Of a stretch of 23,789 bases of DNA, positions 576 to 23,299 are shown piece after piece. The DNA is from a virus. The notes below the pieces were generated by a model. The model had not been told where the DNA came from. It saw nothing but the letters and a program-made list of their open reading frames with translations, and did not search any database. The stretch lies in the UHGV virus genome UHGV-1460385; one strand, 5' to 3'. Both the position numbers and the translations under genes were made by a program. The stretch's first letter is position 1. Every line of letters starts with the position of its first letter.

Positions 576-3263
576 CTATTCCACAACATCATCTTCTATC
601 AATTCAGCCTTATTTAGTTGTTCCTTAAGCTTATTCCATGCAGAATCCTCAGGCATCTGTACTCGCACAGAAACGAATTGATTAGCAGGAATGTCGATCG
701 GGTCACCGTTCGAAACACCAGGGATGTCGTTACGTGCAAAAACGGGCGAGTTATCATGAGTGCGGTGAAACGTTTTCACCAACACAGATCCATCTTGGTT
801 AACAACATAATCCAGCCAGATGAGCGGCTGCTTGTTTCGGTCCTGCGGTATTTCAAATCCACCATCAATCCCCCCCCATGAAGCATCTGCATTCAGACCT
901 ACGCAACCCTCAATCAGATATTCACCCAATGCCAGCCGTGTGACGGTTACCCCATCTGATTCGCGATTTGTTTCACTACTACCGTCTGAGAAAATCTTCA
1001 CAACCGGAGAGGCTTTTTTGATGAAACCACTTGAATCGACGGTCGTGTTCAGCGACGACCATGCCTCAGCCCAGCCTGTGTTACCTGCGCGAATAGCATC
1101 GTCTGCGTAGCGGAAGAACAGTTTTGATGTTGTGGACATGAATATCTGCAACACACGGTTTTTTGCATATCCTGACTCCCATAATGCTCCGTTACCTGTT
1201 CCTTCTGGCTGCCAGTTTGTCACCCCACCTGCAGCTCCTATACTTACACCAGTAGACCAGTCTCCAGCAAATTCTGGAAGATTTAGTGAGTTAGGTGAGC
1301 GAATTGATACATCAACCAGACCAGGGGATCCGAGAATCGACATGCTGCGGGAGGACACCTTAGTAAAAGAGTTGTACCCGCCGTTTTTGGAAATCCTTCC
1401 TGTATAATTATTAGCCCTGTTAGTTCCATTAACTGTAATTTCCCAGGTATCGCCGTTGATGAAGTCGATCTGCAATAGGCAGAATGCTGGCAGCGTCATC
1501 TGTCCTGGCGCAGATGGCCCACCTTCAAACAGTGGCATATCCTGTTCAAGATATGTCACATATCTACCTGCATCTGTATTCCGCAAATAGTCACAAATAG
1601 CCTGTGCCGATGTAAATAGCGCAATACCATCAGCCGGGTTTACAGGGTGACGGCCAGCGTTAATCACCCTTCCGCGAGGGTTAAATAACTGTGATGAGGC
1701 ATTGGATAGCGGAGTCATGTCTACTGTTCCAGGTTCATTAGATGGACAGTTAGCGCGAATGATGTTTAAAGTCCTATAATTTGATCCGCCCCCATTGTCA
1801 TAGCGAATAGACTGTAGAAGATACAATTCCTCAGAGCCAGAAATATCACAAGACTGCACCCCCTCATTTTCAGTGGAGTAAACACTCTTCCCTGAATAAC
1901 TATCCCAGTATGTTTTGAAATCTGCAGGTGACAGCAGGTACTGACCTAATTCTGAACCATTAAGGCTGTACTCAATATAACCCTGCAACCCTGCGAAAGT
2001 ATTTCCAGATCCCGCCGTGGTAGATGCACCAATACCAGCAAATATCCGTTGAGAACCAAGAGCGACACCCTGCCGTTTTGGTTTACCGGCTCCGCGACCT
2101 CCAACATTTGCATCAACCGTAATAGTCCCCATTGGACTGTAAGATCCTTCTATAAGGCTGTTAATATCCAGTGTGTTAAAGATATTGGATACACCTGTCT
2201 CAACATCAAAAATTTTCGGCCAACCCATATCCGCATTTTCGTATATCAGGGTATTACCAAAGCCACTAAACTGATATCGCACTCCAAGGCGTGTTGATTC
2301 AGTGAAGTTTGTAATCTGCGTTTTATCAACCAGCGTACGCGGATCTTCGATAGGGTAAATTCTGATAGTGCGAGATGGGCTGTACGGCAGCAGGATGTAA
2401 CGCTGTCCTGCCACTCGGTAAACGTGGATGCCTTCTGGTGCACCAACGTTATTCGGAAAATGAAGACGTGTTACCAATGCTCCTGTTACCCAGTCATGCA
2501 CCGTAACCCATACCGATGCGGGGTCTAGCGTCTGCCAGCCGATGTATACCATTCCATCATTGCTGTCTATGTAAATCCCCTGAAATCCCATGGTCGTGTA
2601 ACCATACTGATCTTTAAGATCTGCGGTAATCTCATCGTCTATGATGCTGAATTCTAATTTCCAGTTCAGCGGCCTACGCGTACCACTGACATGCCTAGAA
2701 ATATGAGACAGGTAGCTTTTAACCCCGCCTGCGATAATGTATCTATGTTTGATCTCAGTAACAATTCCAGTTGCAACTGGAGTGCATTTATAGACGCCGC
2801 CGTTTATTCTAATAAAATTGGTTCCTGTTAGATTATCCCCAATGGCAACGTCTTTTCTACTATTCTTAAACGTCCCATTACCTAAGTCAGTAACAAGCAA
2901 TGCCCCTTCTACATATTTCAATGACTGATCAGGGTCATACTTCAGCACATTAGGAAAATAGAACTGCTGCGCACCATACGCATCATAAACAGCCATAGAG
3001 TGGCCTTGCACAGTTACGAACTTGGCAATCTGTCCGTTATATACCGGGTAACCAGCAGCGTTAATGATTATTGGTTGCGAAACAGGAACGTGAGAACCGT
3101 CTTCATTCTCCACATAGACCTGAATCTGGTTTTCTGGATTTACAGGATCAGTGTCAATTTTACCGATATAAATTTTGCCATTGGCTACGGCTTTAAAAGA
3201 ACGCGCCATAGTGAAGAGTTGCGAAGGCATCGATACGATCACATTGGCTGTAATGTCTCTCAT
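576..3263 (-). CDS. Tailspike / receptor-binding protein (895 aa): P22-type N-terminal head-binding domain fused to a large non-P22 C-terminal body
   Basis: Residues 1-110 ([40 protein letters not shown]...[12 protein letters not shown]...NVLKYDPDQ) closely match my recollection of the P22 gp9 head-binding domain. The remaining ~780 aa do not resemble the P22 endorhamnosidase body. Last gene of the late operon, after ant, as in P22. ATG at 3263 with GGAG 9 nt upstream; TAG stop at 576-578. Confidence 0.9.
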
Positions 3264-3385: not shown

Positions 3386-4315
3386 TTAAAGTTTAATTGA
3401 GTGGCACGCTCTATCACGTATCGCTGCGAATGAAGCTATCTCTTTAAGTGCCCAGCTTTGCTCAGCCATTAAATGGCGAAGTGCTTTTAGTTCAGCTCTT
3501 ACTGCTGAAACGTCATACCCCGCTTTTGTCAGAATATTGATTAGTTTATACGCCGGACTGCATTCAACGAGTGCGCTGCGGTCAAGAGCAACAGTATCAC
3601 CGCATTGCTGCCTGATAATGGCGTAAGGTGCATTTTCAGCAAACCATGAAATCGGGAAGTTAATATCCAGTTTTGGCGCTGGTAACTCTTCTTGTTTGCC
3701 AATGAACTCACCTTCAAGCGGAACGCGAGCAGCAAGTGACAGTGCTTCGGTAAACTGCTCCTCACTGATTTCTTTGTACGAACATCCAAAATGGGATTTC
3801 AGTGACGACCACATGGTGATCATCGCCTTAGCCTGTTTTTCTTTTGGCAGAGACTGACCGCGACTCATGACGAGTTGTTTAATGGCTTCCTGCTGTTCAG
3901 TGGTAATTTTACTCGGCAACGCCTTTTTAGCTTTGCGTGGGTTAACTACATGACCTTTAGTCCAGTACTCGTAGAGCACATCGTCACACTCTTCCTGATA
4001 CTGGATTACCTTGTCGCGGATTTCAGGGCGGACTTTGTTTGGACTGATGGTTTGCAGCCAGCCAGCAAGTTTGCGAAGTGCCAAACAAATAATCTCACGG
4101 CACTGTTCATCACCAGGAAGCTGCATTGTGATTTTCACAATGGAGGTTTTAAACCGTTGCTTTATTTTCGTAAACTGTGAAGCCCAATCCATACCCATAC
4201 CTTCAACGATAGGTTTCATTGGGGTGTACGGCTCACCGTTGTGATTGACGACATAAAGCTCTGCGCCGTGGAATGGTACATTGATAGTAGATACTGCTGT
4301 TGCTATACTTTTCAT
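3386..4315 (-). CDS. ant: Antirepressor Ant (P22_AR-type N- and C-terminal domains), 309 aa from ATG 4315
   Basis: Position immediately upstream of the tailspike and downstream of arc, as in P22 immI; size near P22 Ant (300 aa). N-terminal VPFHGAELYVVNHNGEPYTPMKPIVEGMGMDW...QLPGDEQ resembles the P22 antirepressor N-domain family as I recall it. The ORF-track start at 4381 is TTG; the first ATG (4315) has AGGAAA 7 nt upstream. Confidence 0.7.
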   Translation of the reverse strand: MKSIATAVSTINVPFHGAELYVVNHNGEPYTPMKPIVEGMGMDWASQFTKIKQRFKTSIVKITMQLPGDEQCREIICLALRKLAGWLQTISPNKVRPEIRDKVIQYQEECDDVLYEYWTKGHVVNPRKAKKALPSKITTEQQEAIKQLVMSRGQSLPKEKQAKAMITMWSSLKSHFGCSYKEISEEQFTEALSLAARVPLEGEFIGKQEELPAPKLDINFPISWFAENAPYAIIRQQCGDTVALDRSALVECSPAYKLINILTKAGYDVSAVRAELKALRHLMAEQSWALKEIASFAAIRDRACHSIKL

Positions 4316-4390
4316 GTCAATATTTCCTAAGACGATTTGTTGATACCGAAGCCCTGACTGTTCCAGCAGTTGGGGCTTCAACGTTTTTCC
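4316..4390 (+). ncRNA. sar: sar-type antisense RNA candidate (~73 nt) covering the ant ribosome-binding site
   Basis: Plus-strand promoter -35 TTGATA (4281-4286), 17-bp spacer, -10 TATACT (4304-4309) with TGc extension. Predicted start near 4316, directly opposite the ant start codon. Ends at a long hairpin (GAAGCCC..ACTG-ttccag-CAGT..GGGCTTC, 4348-4379) followed by ACGTTTTT. Matches the known P22 sar arrangement; transcript not demonstrated. Confidence 0.5.
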
Positions 4391-4647
4391 ACTTCATTTT
4401 GAATTTGCTTAAGTAGCATATTTGTCTCGTCAAGCCTCTTGTTAATACGGTCAAGGCTTTCTACTAAATCGTTATGTGCATGTGATACTTCGTAATTTGA
4501 GACTGATTTCTTTTCCTCTATCGTCTTTGTCAATCGTTCCCCTGATTGATACATATTGATTAGCGCTGTAAAAATCACAAGCAAGCAAACCACAATGATT
4601 GCGCCAGACAAAAATTGTAAAGAACGATCAAGCAATGACACCCTCAT
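4378..4647 (-). CDS. Hypothetical 89-aa protein with one N-terminal transmembrane helix and a charged coiled-coil tail, between arc and ant
   Basis: ATG at 4647 overlaps the arc stop (ATGA). Predicted TM segment LSGAIIVVCLLVIFTALI followed by a heptad-like charged region. No family recognised. Confidence 0.5.
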   Translation of the reverse strand: MRVSLLDRSLQFLSGAIIVVCLLVIFTALINMYQSGERLTKTIEEKKSVSNYEVSHAHNDLVESLDRINKRLDETNMLLKQIQNEVEKR

Positions 4648-4802
4648 ACCATTACCCCCTCCCTCTTCAGGCTGTCCAATACTCGCTTGTAAATCTCAGA
4701 GTTAACAGATCGCTCATTCTCTTTGGCTACCTTGCGCACCAAATCCAATACTTCTTTAGGCATCCGCAAATTAAACTGCGGCATTTTTCTTGCACCTTGC
4801 AT
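4644..4802 (-). CDS. arc: Arc repressor (ribbon-helix-helix), 52 aa; below the 60-aa cutoff so absent from the ORF track
   Basis: Translation by hand: MQGARKMPQFNLRMPKEVLDLVRKVAKENERSVNSEIYKRVLDSLKREGVMV. This matches the P22 Arc sequence as I recall it (MKGMSKMPQFNLRWPREVLDLVRKVAEENGRSVNSEIYQRVMESFKKEGRIGA). GGAG 5 nt upstream of the ATG; TGA stop at 4644-4646. Confidence 0.85.
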   Translation of the reverse strand: MQGARKMPQFNLRMPKEVLDLVRKVAKENERSVNSEIYKRVLDSLKREGVMV

Positions 4803-4818
4803 ACCCTCTCCCAATCAA

Positions 4819-4835
4819 TGAACCACCGTGGTTCA
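4819..4835. promoter_or_regulatory. Omnt-like palindromic operator TGAACCA-CCG-TGGTTCA
   Basis: Perfect 7-bp inverted repeat with 3-bp spacer between the divergent mnt and arc genes. Its core CCACCGTGG resembles the symmetric P22 mnt operator core (TCCACGGTGGA, from memory). Confidence 0.55.
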
Positions 4836-4836
4836 A

Positions 4837-4870
4837 TTGAGAATGTACTATCACCGTTATAGACTGTCAA
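4837..4870. promoter_or_regulatory. Overlapping divergent promoters: Pmnt-like (plus) and Pant-like (minus)
   Basis: Plus strand: -35 TTGAGA (4837-4842), 17 bp, -10 TAGACT (4860-4865). Minus strand: -35 TTGACA (4870-4865), 17 bp, -10 TACATT (4847-4842). The two share bases, and the Pant-like transcript would start inside the palindrome. Confidence 0.45.
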
Positions 4871-4889
4871 GAAAAAACATGGTGATAAA

Positions 4890-5144
4890 ATGTCCAGAGA
4901 AGACCCACAATTTAAGTTGCGCCTTCCAGCAGAGTTAAAAGCAAAGTTAGACCAAAGGGCAAAAATGAATGGTCGGTCTATCAATTCTGAACTAGTTCAG
5001 ATCGTACAGAAGGCGTTATCTGAACCATCACCGATTGCAGGCTATCGAGACGAAGCTGAACGCTTGGCTGATCAGCAAGCAGAGCAGTTCAAGACTGTTG
5101 TGTTTGAGACACTTAAAAAGATTTATGGCAAGGATGATAAATAA
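4890..5144 (+). CDS. mnt: Mnt repressor (Arc/MetJ-family ribbon-helix-helix), 84 aa
   Basis: MSREDPQFKLRLPAELKAKLDQRAKMNGRSINSELVQIVQKALSEPSPIAGYRDEAERLADQQ... is near-colinear with the P22 Mnt sequence as I recall it (ARDDPHFNFRMPMEVREKLKFRAEANGRSMNSELLQIVQDALSKPSPVTGYRNDAERLADEQ...). Divergent from arc-ant across an operator. Confidence 0.85.
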   Translation: MSREDPQFKLRLPAELKAKLDQRAKMNGRSINSELVQIVQKALSEPSPIAGYRDEAERLADQQAEQFKTVVFETLKKIYGKDDK

Positions 5145-5680
5145 TGCTGCACACAATTCATTTCTTATGCCCCGTTAACACCGCCACTGTTGGGCAACTT
5201 CAGAACCACTGTCTCACCGCATTATCTCAAGGCGCAACTGAATTAAATATCCATATATCAAGTCAGGGAGGGGAAACAGCCGCTGGCTTTACTGCGTATA
5301 ACTTTCTTAAGTCACTCCCTGTTACCGTTAGAACTCACAACATAAGCAATGTTGAATCCATAGCTAATATCGTTTTCCTGGCTGGCTCAGAACGTTTCGC
5401 AAACCCATTATCAAGATTCCTGTTACATCCTCTATTATGGTGCTTTGCCTCCCCAGCCGCCGACCATGCCAGATTGAGAGAGTACGGGAAATGCCTCGAT
5501 AACGATCTTGATCGCTTCGTTGAGACGTTCAATATCGACATCGGAACCCATATTAGGTGGGCATCCCTGATAGCAGACTCGACCATTTTGGATGCTAACA
5601 AGGCTCTTGAGCATGGCATAATTAATTCCATAAAAACTGCAAGGCTGGTATCCAATCAGGCAAACTGGTGGGTTGTTTGA
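5144..5680 (+). CDS. Truncated ClpP-family (S14-like) serine protease, 178 aa, translationally coupled to mnt
   Basis: Start ATG overlaps the mnt TAA (TAATG). By-eye alignment to E. coli ClpP: NIHISSQGGETAAG vs YINSPGGVITAG; SNVESIANIVFLAG vs GQAASMGAFLLTAG (Ser); RFLLHPL vs RVMIHQPL (His); ILDANKALEHGII vs FLSAPEAVEYGLV with an upstream Asp. Ser-His-Asp spacing matches. The ~25 N-terminal residues of ClpP are absent. Confidence 0.75.
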   Translation: MLHTIHFLCPVNTATVGQLQNHCLTALSQGATELNIHISSQGGETAAGFTAYNFLKSLPVTVRTHNISNVESIANIVFLAGSERFANPLSRFLLHPLLWCFASPAADHARLREYGKCLDNDLDRFVETFNIDIGTHIRWASLIADSTILDANKALEHGIINSIKTARLVSNQANWWVV

Positions 5681-5958: not shown

Positions 5959-6686
5959 TATGCAACATTACTCCCATGAATCAGGTGTTGTAGAGCTTTA
6001 ACACCTTCCGCATTGTAGCGGAATGCTTCCACCTGTTTGCTGGAATGTGCAGATTTATCCAGGAAGAACTTCCCGTACTGCTCAGTTTTGAGGTTGTTTG
6101 CGTTAGCAATGCGACCAATCTTGTTGGCCGTTACTCCAAGCTGCTCTGCAACCTCCCCTGCTGAGTAGTAATGCTCTTCTATTGCTGGAAGAGGTATTGC
6201 ATTAAAACCAACGATCGGGTTGATTATGCTTGCTGCCGCAGTCTGCTTTGCTTCCGGCGCAAGATTTGGCATCAAATCGAACAGATTGGTAACAGCTTCA
6301 ACCGTCATTTTCAATGTTCGCGCCTGGCGATACTCAACAAGTCCACTCGACGATTTACCGCTTTTAATGTGCGCTTCTTGCATACTTTCAAGTTGGTCTA
6401 CAAGTGAGCGGCGAACAGCTTTAGATTCACGAGCAGCCACTCGAAGGGCTTGCTTAATTGACATAACAACTTTTTCAGAAGTTGTCTTGTTTGATTTTTG
6501 AACTACGAAAATTTCGTAGTGCTCACCTTCAAGTTCATCCTTAATGCGTGCAATAAAGTCGTTATTTCGGACTTCTTTTTCCCCGCACTGTCTACGAGCA
6601 TGATTGACCATCTCTAACAGGTACTGGCTATCAATGGTTTTATCCGTGACAACGGATCCGATGTTTGCTACATTCTTAAAAGTCAT
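5958..6686 (-). CDS. Rha-like N-domain plus KilA-C-like C-domain protein (antirepressor-family regulator), 242 aa from ATG 6686
   Basis: N-terminal TIDSQYLLEMVNHARRQCGEKEVRNNDFIARIKDEL...HYEIFVVQKS resembles the Rha family. C-terminal YSAGEVAEQLGVTANKIGRIANANNLKTEQYGKFFLDKS resembles KilA-C-type antirepressor C-domains. AAGGA 7 nt upstream of ATG 6686; the track start at 6737 is GTG and would run through a terminator hairpin. Confidence 0.65.
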   Translation of the reverse strand: MTFKNVANIGSVVTDKTIDSQYLLEMVNHARRQCGEKEVRNNDFIARIKDELEGEHYEIFVVQKSNKTTSEKVVMSIKQALRVAARESKAVRRSLVDQLESMQEAHIKSGKSSSGLVEYRQARTLKMTVEAVTNLFDLMPNLAPEAKQTAAASIINPIVGFNAIPLPAIEEHYYSAGEVAEQLGVTANKIGRIANANNLKTEQYGKFFLDKSAHSSKQVEAFRYNAEGVKALQHLIHGSNVA

Positions 6687-6774: not shown

Positions 6775-7401
6775 TCAATGAATCCATTCCTCGCCGCGAA
6801 GTTTTGCCAGCATTGGCTGAGCGTTCTTTACGACAAAATTGTTGGTATCAAGATTCTTCATTTCACGAAGAAGTGATTTCTTGGTTTCTTCTGACATGTA
6901 GCGAGTCTCATATGCAATATCGTAAATCCTTCCTGAAAGCTCAGAACCAATTTGCTTCATTCCTGGGTAGATGTGTTTGCACATTTGTTGACTCTTCTCC
7001 ATCCACAATTGTAAGTAGCAGAGATTAACCAGTTCTTCGTCAGTAAACTGTTTTGCAATCGGTGAGCATTCTGCCTGCCGATCCAAAATATCCAGCACCC
7101 AGCGGCGGAACTCTTTGGCTACCGGAGTGCGAGCAAACATCGCGATTAGGTGGGCACCGCGTAGTGAGAAAACTCGCACTTTTTTGCGATAATTTCCTGA
7201 GGTACTCACTTCGAGTACCTGAGTCATTCCGGCGCTAAACTCATCGCTATACTTGTTATAAATCATTGTTACTGCACGACTATTTGCGTATTTAAGTGCA
7301 GATGCAATATTAGATGATGTAAACCAAACACCATGCATATCACGGGTGGGCACCAACTCAACTCCGTGGAAGTTGTAATCTGATTTTGCTACAATATTCA
7401 T
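6775..7401 (-). CDS. Bro-N domain antirepressor-like protein, 208 aa from ATG 7401
   Basis: NFHGVELVPTRDMHGVWFTSSNIASALKYANSRAVTMIYNKY...KKVRVFSLRGAHLIAMFARTPVAKEFRRWVLDIL fits the Bro-N prophage antirepressor pattern. AGGAAA 6 nt upstream of ATG 7401; the track start at 7506 is TTG. Confidence 0.8.
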   Translation of the reverse strand: MNIVAKSDYNFHGVELVPTRDMHGVWFTSSNIASALKYANSRAVTMIYNKYSDEFSAGMTQVLEVSTSGNYRKKVRVFSLRGAHLIAMFARTPVAKEFRRWVLDILDRQAECSPIAKQFTDEELVNLCYLQLWMEKSQQMCKHIYPGMKQIGSELSGRIYDIAYETRYMSEETKKSLLREMKNLDTNNFVVKNAQPMLAKLRGEEWIH

Positions 7402-7476
7402 GTTAGTTTCCTTGCATACGGTTACTGACATAGAGGCCCGGTTTGTGTTCGCGCACTGCCGGGCTTCACTATTTTT
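7402..7476 (+). ncRNA. Second sar-like antisense RNA candidate, opposite the Bro-N gene start
   Basis: Extended -10 TGcTACAAT at 7387-7395 on the plus strand, ending 3 nt before the complement of the Bro-N ATG (same geometry as at ant). Hairpin GCCCGG..CCGGGC (7436-7464) followed by U-rich TTCACTATTTTTATT. Weak -35, and the U-tract is interrupted. Confidence 0.35.
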
Positions 7477-7648
7477 ATTGGATGACAACATCGCCCTTTG
7501 CCTCAAGTTTCATCAATAACTCCATTCGATAAGCTATCTCTGCCTGAATTGACCTATGGCATCTTTTTGCTGATTCGCGGATATGTGAATCAACCTTTTC
7601 TGTAAAACGAACCTGACGCGGCTTGATGGAAGATATCTTTTCAGTCAT
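7475..7648 (-). CDS. Arc-like ribbon-helix-helix regulator, 57 aa; absent from the ORF track
   Basis: Translation by hand: MTEKISSIKPRQVRFTEKVDSHIRESAKRCHRSIQAEIAYRMELLMKLEAKGDVVIQ. Pattern of beta-strand (RQVRFTEKV) then two helices with RS-I-EI motif is typical of Arc/CopG. GGAG 6 nt upstream of ATG 7648; TAA at 7475-7477. Confidence 0.7.
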   Translation of the reverse strand: MTEKISSIKPRQVRFTEKVDSHIRESAKRCHRSIQAEIAYRMELLMKLEAKGDVVIQ

Positions 7649-7697
7649 TATGCACTCCTGTTTTTAAAAAACTCATAATCTCACTTTTTGTAGTTTG

Positions 7698-7726
7698 ATT
7701 ATTCACTCACACTCAGCATGAGTCAA
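7698..7726 (-). promoter_or_regulatory. Pant-like promoter for the Arc-like / Bro-N operon
   Basis: Minus strand -35 TTGACT (7726-7721), 17-bp spacer containing tandem CACTCA repeats, -10 AATAAT (7703-7698). Confidence 0.4.
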
Positions 7727-7747
7727 TGAATTTTTTATGGTGAACTA

Positions 7748-8389
7748 ATGAATTTTGACGATCAATTCCCATCAAGAGTATCTCTGGCAAGACAGTCCAG
7801 GGGTATGACGCAGGCGCAGTTGTCAAAATTAGCTGGTGTTGTTCAACGTCAAATAGCTGCATACGAGGGTGGTGAGGCTAAACCACGGCTTCGGGTATTG
7901 CAGGCATTAGCCAACGCATTAGGTACTACAGCTGAGTGGTTAGCTCTAGGTGAAGGTCAGGGTCCGGGAACAAAAAACGTCATGCCTGACGTTCTGGTAA
8001 AGCAAATACCAATCCTCAAACTAGATGAAGTTATGCATTACCTAAACACAGGTGAACATTCATCGTCTAGATTTCATCCGGCAATATACAATGTTGGTGA
8101 CTCTGCATTTGCATTGACTATTGAAGGTGAAGCTATGACTACAAGTTCAGGTATTAGCTTTCCCAGAGGATCGGTTGTCACGTTCAGCCCTCTAGTAAAA
8201 GCTAAAAGCAAAGATTATGTAATAGCATCATTGGATAAAGAGCAAATATTGAGCTTCAAACAGGTTTACATTGGTGAAATAGAGACAAACCTAGTATCCC
8301 TAAACCCAATGTATCCTAATATTCTTGTTAGAAATGAAGATGTTAGTATTTTGGCAACCGCAGTTTACCTTGAAATCCCGTTGCTTTGA
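7748..8389 (+). CDS. Lambda-CI/LexA-fold repressor (HTH plus S24-like C-domain) with Ala at the nucleophile position
   Basis: N-terminal Cro/C1-type HTH (MTQAQLSKLAGVVQRQIAAYEGGEAKP). C-domain aligns with lambda CI: FALTIEGEAM vs FWLDVQGDSM (Ser to Ala, codon GCT), LSFKQV vs ATFKKL (Lys kept), LNPMYPNI vs LNPQYPMI. Confidence 0.85.
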   Translation: MNFDDQFPSRVSLARQSRGMTQAQLSKLAGVVQRQIAAYEGGEAKPRLRVLQALANALGTTAEWLALGEGQGPGTKNVMPDVLVKQIPILKLDEVMHYLNTGEHSSSRFHPAIYNVGDSAFALTIEGEAMTTSSGISFPRGSVVTFSPLVKAKSKDYVIASLDKEQILSFKQVYIGEIETNLVSLNPMYPNILVRNEDVSILATAVYLEIPLL

Positions 8390-15150: not shown

Positions 15151-15612
15151 TCACGTACTCGGTTCATCTTTCTCGATGTAAAACCGATTCCACGTAAACG
15201 CGCTTTTTAACCCCGCCCCGCGAGGCATATCATTTCGCCGCTCAAGTGGTGGTATTTTGGTTAAAGCGATACAGATTGTTTGATATGCACTGTCAGCAGC
15301 GGTAAGGAGAGCGTCTGACGGCTGAATGACGTTATCCATGCACACTTGCACAGCGAGTTTCAAAGCGACGCCATCATTTGCCCATGCAGGGATACCTGAA
15401 TCATCGTCAGGTAACGGCATGATGCCGTTTTCTGTATCAGCAAACTGATATCCAAGCTCGATACCTTTAGCCTGCCATGCTGCCATCATGTCTTCGAGGT
15501 CATTAATGGCATCTTCAATTGCCTGAGGGTCAGCATCTGTCAACGTGGCATTGGAATACAGCCCGGCTTTTCGTAAAGCCTTTAGAACGAGATCACCCTT
15601 CGTTTTCGCCAT
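15151..15612 (-). CDS. 4: Tail accessory factor gp4, 153 aa
   Basis: MAKTKGDLVLKALRKAGLYSNATLTDADPQAIEDAINDLEDMMAAW resembles the P22 gp4 N-terminus as I recall it ([43 protein letters not shown]). Confidence 0.9.
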   Translation of the reverse strand: MAKTKGDLVLKALRKAGLYSNATLTDADPQAIEDAINDLEDMMAAWQAKGIELGYQFADTENGIMPLPDDDSGIPAWANDGVALKLAVQVCMDNVIQPSDALLTAADSAYQTICIALTKIPPLERRNDMPRGAGLKSAFTWNRFYIEKDEPST

Positions 15613-22756: not shown

Positions 22757-23299
22757 TTAATTGGTGAGTCCGGGGATTACGGTTTGCCCGTGCTGTTCAA
22801 GGCGTTCAATTCTCGCCAGTAGCTGAGGCTTCTTAATTTTTCCCCAGCGATTGAGCAGACGACCTGACATGCTGGCAACATCCTTCTCTTTCATGTACTC
22901 CAGCATTACGGCATTTCTCTCTTCTTCAAATTGACGATGACCAACCTGAAGCATGGCGTACATCCAGTTAAATGCGTTGATGTAAGCAATTTTGATACGC
23001 ATTGCTTCTTTTTTGGTGTAGGACATAACCAAAAGCATCAACCCATCCTTACGGAGACGGTAGAATTTTTGCGGCTTACCATTCTGTAACTCATTGTTTT
23101 TATAGCAAAGCTCAAAGTTGAGCTTTGTATCAAACTCAGGAGGGCAAGCTTCTATGGTTCGCTCAATGTCACGGACTACGTTCTTCGGCAGCTTTCCAAA
23201 TGCTTTTGCCACCATAAAAGAATCTGTAACCGGATCGTTGTTTGCTACAAAAATTAGGTCTCTGAAATCTATATCGTTAACAACGGTTGGGTAGTTCAT
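22757..23299 (-). CDS. rha: Phage regulatory protein Rha, 180 aa
   Basis: PVTDSFMVAKAFGKLPKNVVRDIERTIE...FYRLRKDGLMLLVMSYTKKEAMRIKIAYINAFNWM fits the Rha family signature. Sits between the lysis genes and the terminase genes, as rha does in P22. Confidence 0.85.
   Translation of the reverse strand: MNYPTVVNDIDFRDLIFVANNDPVTDSFMVAKAFGKLPKNVVRDIERTIEACPPEFDTKLNFELCYKNNELQNGKPQKFYRLRKDGLMLLVMSYTKKEAMRIKIAYINAFNWMYAMLQVGHRQFEEERNAVMLEYMKEKDVASMSGRLLNRWGKIKKPQLLARIERLEQHGQTVIPGLTN

Follow-up and report, generated by a model that had tools for sequence, protein, structure and literature searches.

Stretch 4803-4889 of the viral DNA analysed here (UHGV virus genome UHGV-1460385; 23,789 nucleotides, referred to in its full length as the window) is intergenic, with two small divergent genes, homologues of arc and mnt of phage P22, on either side. 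It bears a perfect 17-bp palindrome, TGAACCAC-C-GTGGTTCA, at 4819-4835 (sequence TGAACCACCGTGGTTCA, centre c4827), which an earlier interpretation made from the letters alone (the sequence-only reading) had taken for an operator of the P22 mnt type (Omnt) with an altered specificity. Mnt and Arc are textbook models of β-sheet DNA recognition, and their specificity has mostly been explored via laboratory mutants. The question raised by this locus is whether the palindrome serves the adjacent Mnt homologue as its operator, and whether the two together form a natural specificity class distinct from that of P22.

Gene content of the region

The candidate cognate repressor is the product of the mnt homologue (4890-5144, + strand, 84 aa, from the list of open reading frames), which is matched by the Pfam families Arc (7e-19) and Repressor_Mnt (3e-12), by the PDB entry 1mnt (3e-26) and by the Mnt tetramerisation domain 1qey (5e-5). 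It displays 59% identity to P22 Mnt and 68% to the closest Mnt of a named phage, and shares with P22 Mnt the ribbon-helix-helix domain, the C-terminal tetramerisation helix and the residues Arg2 and Arg10. Where P22 Mnt has His6 and Asn8, the N-terminus here, MSREDPQFKLRLP, has Gln6 and Lys8. Exactly this protein occurs on 64 public contigs, under no other names than 'Arc family DNA-binding protein' and 'plasmid stability protein', and its record carries the label MULTISPECIES Enterobacteriaceae. A protein scan of genome contigs returned no full-length Mnt relatives, only relatives of the N-terminal domain from Pseudomonas, Pantoea and related genera.

The arc homologue (4644-4802, - strand, 52 aa, Pfam Arc 1e-24) has its start codon at 4802 and the N-terminus MQGARKMPQFNLRMP. 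Beyond it on the same strand lie an 89-aa ORF with one predicted membrane helix (4378-4647, from the ORF list) and the ant antirepressor gene (3386-4318; P22_AR_N, 5e-45). Opposite the start of ant, the + strand encodes the sar antisense RNA (4317-4383; Rfam RF00262, 66.2 bits against a gathering score of 43), with a terminator-like site found at the position of the sar terminator hairpin (4348-4379). The genes mnt, arc, ant and sar are thus all present, between the injection-protein genes and the tailspike gene (576-3263, from the ORF list), whose product has a P22-type head-binding N-terminus. The structural genes of the window are ~94% identical to those of the E. coli P22-like phages JEP4, E212, EC.P3 and CUS-3. 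This combination of mnt, arc, sar and ant with the P22-type tailspike and structural genes identifies the region as the immI region ('ant moron') of a P22-like prophage, a region whose gene content is highly variable among P22-like phages (PMC2629481, PMC8022706). As to annotation, the pairs of 'Arc family DNA-binding protein' genes seen here form a complete immI switch.

The window differs from P22 in the 89-aa ORF inserted between arc and ant, in a ClpP-like gene after mnt and in the sequence of the Arc operator. The stop codon of the 89-aa ORF lies inside the sar terminator, and P22 is without a gene at that place; homologues of the ORF are annotated as hypothetical in E. coli prophages, and a Pfam comparison gave no confident family for it. 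The ClpP-like gene (5144-5680, + strand; Pfam CLP_protease, 2e-11) occupies the place of orf59a and sieA of P22. Its start overlaps the stop of mnt (ATGA), which makes joint transcription of the two genes from the prophage probable.

Geometry and conservation of the palindrome

The sequence-only reading had described a perfect inverted repeat of 7-3-7 geometry. The perfection of the repeat was borne out, and its geometry had to be corrected to 8-1-8: the repeat search resolved two arms of 8 nt each (4819-4826 and 4828-4835), 100% complementary, on either side of a single central base. A search for further copies of the operator in the window, allowing up to 3 mismatches, returned none against 0.03 expected. 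Perfect palindromes with 8-bp arms and spacers of 0-3 are more frequent in the window (9) than expected from Markov-chain simulations (1.7), so that a palindrome as such is not rare here, and the significance of this one rests on its position and conservation. Others are situated at 1549-1565, 2766-2781, 4124-4142, 6502-6520, 15413-15429 and 23108-23125, and most of these palindromes lie within coding regions. A second palindrome inside mnt (4986-5001), which shares TGAAC/GTTCA with the first, is conserved in no relative and was treated as a chance occurrence.

Conservation was assessed in the clade to which the window belongs (17 loci, which yielded 10 distinct sequences). Invariant columns make up 82% of the palindrome and 91% of the block of promoters and Arc operator, but only 19% of the arc leader (4803-4818). 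Within the palindrome, variation in this clade is confined to the outermost base, to the central base and to position 3 in one of the arms. The centre can be C or G here and any of the four bases in the P22 class; such a free central base between conserved arms is as expected of a dyad site with an unread centre.

Comparison with the P22 operator

Over the region, the window and P22 are ~71% identical. When the region was aligned with the Omnt/Oarc region of P22, a check proposed along with the sequence-only reading, the palindrome fell column for column on the P22 operator AGGTCCACCGTGGACCT (1763-1779 of the P22 locus, L001), which lies within the feature annotated 'mnt operator' in BK000583 and reads AGGTCCAC-C-GTGGACCT in arm form. 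The claim that the CCAC-N-GTGG core of the P22 operator is retained and the flanks are changed was confirmed, as positions 1, 3 and 4 of the half-site differ in both arms. The outer positions read AGGT in P22 and TGAA in the window, and all three changes are mirrored in the other arm, leaving the dyad perfect. Common to both sites are the 17-bp dyad, the single central base pair, the inner CCAC-N-GTGG and the G at position 2.

PMC2726951 describes P22 Mnt as binding a symmetric site as a tetramer, with GTGGACC as the best half-site and with some positions strongly read and others mattering little. In this published orientation the window half-site (TGAACCAC, against AGGTCCAC in P22) reads GTGGTTC, departing from the optimum at 2 of the 7 positions in both arms, which points to a homologous operator of another specificity class rather than a site of P22 specificity.

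Arrangement of the divergent promoters

Two promoter-like sites were picked up independently by a consensus scan. The Pmnt equivalent (4837-4865, + strand) has its -35 hexamer TTGAGA at 4837-4842 and its -10 hexamer TAGACT at 4860-4865, with a 17-bp spacer and a predicted start at ~4872. The Pant equivalent, serving arc, the 89-aa ORF and ant (4842-4870, - strand), has TTGACA at 4870-4865 and TACATT at 4847-4842, likewise with a 17-bp spacer, and matches the consensus at 10 of 12 positions; its predicted start is at ~4835. The hexamers of both promoters lie at offsets identical to those annotated in P22.

The operator is thus located between divergent mnt and arc, at the predicted start of Pant and next to the Pmnt -35, and the window and P22 agree in its placement with respect to the two overlapping promoters, the Arc-operator position and the genes arc, sar and ant. 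Not every detail of the sequence-only reading survived this comparison. The palindrome does reach the predicted arc-ant start, which coincides with its right edge, so that it would span ~+1 to +17 of the Pant transcript; the Pant -10 ends 7 bp from the operator edge. On the other hand, the reported overlap with the -35 of the mnt promoter is not seen, the palindrome merely abutting TTGAGA with a 1-bp gap, although a protein footprint of the size found in P22 would overlap this hexamer. The promoters had also been called face-to-face; they are divergent, lie on the same DNA and fire outwards, with transcripts that do not converge, as the Pant and Pmnt promoters of P22 are 'divergent and overlapping' (PMC2724298).

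As the spacing of the site to the promoters is identical to that in P22, the expected logic, in which Mnt controls both ant and mnt, would hold for the window as well. The sequence-only reading had pictured this as repression of ant with autoregulation. For P22, Vershon et al. (1987) reportedly found that Mnt does not repress its own gene; it silences the competing Pant and in this way stimulates Pmnt.

Covariation of the half-site with the Mnt β-strand

Loci related to the window (~110) were gathered from IMG/VR, GTDB genomes, phage records and E. coli genomes, and every NNNNNCACNGTGNNNNN within 160 nt upstream of each gene was tabulated. Across these loci the outer half-site tracks the class of the Mnt β-strand. 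The P22 type, PHFNFR (38 loci), is accompanied by the half-site rGGTCCAC, with T at position 4 in 13 of 14 cases. The window type, PQFKLR (52 loci with 50 distinct 17-mers), goes with nGrAyCAC, and position 4 is A in 99 of 100 half-site instances. For PQFR(I/V)R (10 loci) the half-site is TGyCnCAC, with C at position 4 in 22 of 24, and PQFN(L/F)R (7 loci; phages L, ST160 and 720R6 and the L028 group) displays rAGACCAC in clean arms, with A at position 4 in 7 of 8.

The QFKLR class also includes arc-less ribbon-helix-helix genes, with the N-terminus MSREDPQFKLR and 2-3 copies of the motif upstream, on contigs that include Pseudomonas and Pantoea. As these genes have no arc partner, the motif belongs with that β-strand rather than with Arc or the arc mRNA. 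Simple linkage nevertheless explains part of the covariation, because the operator and the mnt N-terminus are only ~55-70 bp apart. The class is loose at positions 1 (T/G/A), 3 (A/G) and 5 (C/T), and position 4 is then the one place where the P22 half-site departs from its consensus; P22 Mnt could therefore be discriminated against less strongly than three mismatches would lead one to expect.

A single substitution in Mnt shifts its preference mainly at two adjacent operator positions, according to PMC1184061, which cites Raumann 1995, Silbaq 2002 and Man 2004. We infer that position 4 of the half-site is one of these two. The substituted residue is presumably residue 6, and the two positions of the published shift are taken by us to be those changed naturally here, GTGGAC to GTGGTT. 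Relative to P22, positions 3-4 of the half-site (GT to AA) have changed together with His6 to Gln and Asn8 to Lys in Mnt.

Exchange of the control region as a cassette

The window was compared with the prophage of E. coli CU37RT-2 in sliding windows of 30 nt. Identity is only 50-73% from 4783 to ~5020, against 80-97% on the left, in the body of arc (4648-4780), and 93-100% on the right (5023 onwards), in the mnt C-terminal domain and the ClpP-like gene. The divergent block of ~240 bp (4783-5020) comprises arc codons 1-7, Omnt, both promoters, the Arc-operator position and the mnt ribbon-helix-helix domain, and the CU37RT-2 prophage bears the P22-type version of every one of these components. 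The Mnt/operator pair is evidently passed on as one ~240-bp unit, recombination taking place within the two genes arc and mnt. Of 5426 complete E. coli genomes, 2 contain the window-type cassette; a search of 50,697 phage genomes did not turn it up, the best match being partial (73%).

In phage EC.P3 (L003, 3340-3865, against 4640-5150 of the window), the flanks are ~94% identical on both sides, and the regulator N-termini and the intergenic region are unrelated. A third type of cassette seems to be present here in EC.P3, again with breakpoints inside both repressor genes.

Immunity cassettes of lambdoid phages are exchangeable, for example imm434 and imm21 against that of lambda. They have in common with the present one that a short block, containing the DNA-reading part of the repressor together with its operators, is swapped as a unit. 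The window differs from them in that the immunity concerned is secondary (antirepressor) immunity, the repressors are of the ribbon-helix-helix type and the recombination points fall inside arc and mnt.

The covariation across ~110 loci and the swapped cassette together back the claim, made in the sequence-only reading, of a Mnt specificity different from that of P22. The window Mnt/operator pair is likely not to cross-react with the P22 pair, and it probably represents a different immI immunity type, that is, one heteroimmune to P22.

Sequence types at the Arc-operator position

The Arc-operator position of the window, GTACTATCAC-C-GTTATAGACT (4845-4865, centre c4855), lies 28 bp from the Omnt centre, as in P22. 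Its 21-mer differs from the P22 Oarc at 12 of 21 positions, yet P22 and the window have identical base-contacting residues in Arc (Gln9, Asn11 and Arg13), and the β-strand PQFNLR(W/M) is the same everywhere. The 21-mers at this position form discrete types that track residues 2-5 of the Arc N-terminal arm. The arm MKGMSK occurs with ATAGTAGAGTGCTTCTATCAT (32 loci), M(K/Q)GARK with GTACTATCACCGTTATA(GA/TG)CT (15 loci, including the window) and MKGASK with ATArTAGCATCrTCCTATCAT (2 loci). Phage N7, whose Arc differs from that of P22 only by K2Q, M4A, S5R, R16K and E43D, has the site GTACTACTACCGTTCTAGCAT (L111, 958-978), which is of the window type.

The arm itself may contribute to specificity, the half-sites may be re-oriented, or the tracking may be plain linkage, as the arm codons lie inside the cassette. 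As regards re-orientation, hexamers of the Arc operator centred on TA steps match those of P22 at 10 of 12 positions when read outwards and at 6 of 12 when read inwards; against a flipped half-site, the sub-clades L004-L017 and L028 are without TAG. A broader proposal is that immI is a natural series of exchangeable cassettes, in which Mnt residues 6 and 8 re-code positions 3-4 and the Arc operator shifts with arm residues 2-5 while the β-strand stays unchanged. It is put forward tentatively, the odds being somewhat against it. If true, the arm or the orientation of the half-sites would partly determine which sites natural Arc proteins recognise, and the series would provide a ready-made recognition code for ribbon-helix-helix proteins.

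Alternative explanations

A functional difference from P22 need not follow from the altered outer bases. These could be tolerated drift, each Mnt still repressing the Pant of the other, and the identity of the core CCAC-N-GTGG, of G2 and of Arg2 and Arg10 is in keeping with such homoimmunity. The QFKLR class, moreover, accepts A or G at position 3 and several bases at position 1, so that position 4 may be the sole firm discriminator, and some half-site positions matter little for Mnt (PMC2726951). Position 4 is, however, almost strictly class-specific (T, A or C), residues 6 and 8 of Mnt both differ from P22, and the control region behaves as a discrete swapped cassette, without intermediates, in prophages that are otherwise near-identical. 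Homoimmunity with P22 is accordingly rated unlikely, and an operator of separate specificity is preferred.

The remaining explanations deny the palindrome its role as a Mnt site. Lying at ~+1 to +17 of the predicted Pant transcript, it could act mainly as a 5'-terminal hairpin of the arc-ant mRNA, affecting stability or translation; a 7-bp stem with a 3-nt loop is possible (-7.4 kcal/mol), and mirror-image changes in the two arms would preserve an RNA or a DNA hairpin equally well. The fold is, however, no better than that of shuffled sequences (z -0.76; 46 of 200 shuffles fold at least as well), and the one-arm variants in relatives include A-C mismatches and not wobble pairs alone. The homologous P22 site is, moreover, an experimentally defined and annotated Mnt operator (PMC2726951), and at arc-less ribbon-helix-helix genes 2-3 copies of the motif lie upstream, overlapping promoter elements. 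A hairpin function as the main role is accordingly improbable. The adjacent Arc homologue might be the binding protein instead, as the palindrome is 17 bp from the arc start codon and the sequence at the Arc-operator position is unexpectedly unlike that of P22. This is still harder to credit, given that the Arc β-strand QFNLR is unchanged between P22 and the window while the palindrome changes, that the motif accompanies QFKLR proteins at arc-less loci, and that the exact Arc-operator position, 28 bp away, has a conserved near-palindrome of its own. Nor does the palindrome resemble an Oarc of the P22 type, a 21-bp site with inverted TAGA boxes between the Pant -10 and -35; it has no TAGA boxes and lies downstream of the Pant -10, and this assignment was rejected. 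Chance could be invoked from the 9 perfect palindromes with 8-bp arms against 1.7 expected and from the unconserved one at 4986-5001 inside mnt, but the positional homology to P22, the conservation against a variable neighbouring stretch and the class-specific covariation reduce its probability to almost nothing.

Proposed mechanism

The palindrome is very probably the cognate Mnt operator of the window. Judged by sequence, it is a homologue of P22 Omnt that agrees with it in every architectural respect compared above and belongs to a separate specificity class. The full reading, in which it is a single operator of a tetrameric Mnt in the immI region of a Lederbergvirus-type prophage, altered in specificity and inherited as a cassette, is also held to be likely, with good confidence.

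The palindrome would be the single operator for a tetrameric Mnt-type repressor encoded 55 bp to its right. One ribbon-helix-helix dimer would occupy each 8-bp arm, and the C-terminal coiled coil would join the two dimers, as the conserved tetramerisation domain suggests. Bound Mnt would block initiation at Pant and so hold arc, the 89-aa ORF and ant silent during lysogeny. As both promoters compete for the same DNA, the silencing of Pant would free Pmnt and sustain mnt expression. Arc made after infection would, by homology to P22, bind 28 bp away and shut both promoters, as P22 Arc shuts Pant and Pmnt (PMC2724298), and sar would limit the translation of ant.

In the window and its ~110 relatives there thus appear to be several discrete natural classes of Mnt specificity, each with a matching operator, the pair being exchanged as a compact cassette. 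The repressor-operator pairs assembled here are directly testable, both for work on the recognition code and as orthogonal genetic parts. Differences in secondary (antirepressor) immunity among P22-like prophages are further implied, and these would affect which superinfecting phages induce or escape the resident prophage. Nothing in the literature searched describes natural alternatives to the P22 Mnt operator or heteroimmunity of immI; only variability in gene content is reported, and such an absence is no proof of novelty.

Related loci and other features of the window

Phages L, ST64T and ST160 and the E. coli phage vB_EcoP-720R6, which have mnt only, display the operator architecture of the window directly upstream of a TTG -35-like element and a mnt homologue. 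They differ from the window in the QFNLR β-strand, in the half-site rAGACCAC and in the lack of arc, sar and ant. The operator of ST160 and L is perfect (TAAGACCAC-G-GTGGTCTTA) and lies ~65-85 nt upstream of mnt (L103, L108). Such a perfect operator next to the TTG -35-like element suggests that L and ST160 carry a working autoregulated Mnt with a specificity class of its own (QFNLR). In the genome paper of phage L, the mnt-like gene was suggested to be a possible remnant of a degrading immI region.

Short Arc-family regulators from viral contigs of IMG/VR and from genomes of Pseudomonas, Pantoea, Stutzerimonas, Mixta and related genera (L058-L102) resemble the window in the N-terminus MSREDPQFKLR(M/L)P and in the site nGrAyCAC-N-GTGrTyCn, and one of these loci (L059) bears the identical 17-mer, TGAACCACCGTGGTTCA. 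Unlike the window Mnt, they are homologous over only the first ~36-49 residues and have no arc or ant partner; their operators, again unlike that of the window, come in 2-3 copies, ~28-30 bp apart, over their own promoter. Across the whole set the N-terminus reads MSREDPQF(K/R)(L/I)R and is accompanied by CAC-N-GTG palindromes, and the QFRIR subgroup has the half-sites TGCCCCAC or TGTCACAC.

A possible second switch is present in the window at 6775-8389. It consists of an antirepressor-like gene with Bro-N and P22_AR_C domains (6775-7506, - strand), a 57-aa ORF ahead of it (7475-7648, - strand), which is ribbon-helix-helix-like by sequence and has a weak, sub-threshold ParD-like Pfam match, and a gene for a CI/LexA-like repressor with HTH_3 and Peptidase_S24 domains (7748-8389, + strand), divergent from the pair formed by the Bro-N gene and the 57-aa ORF.
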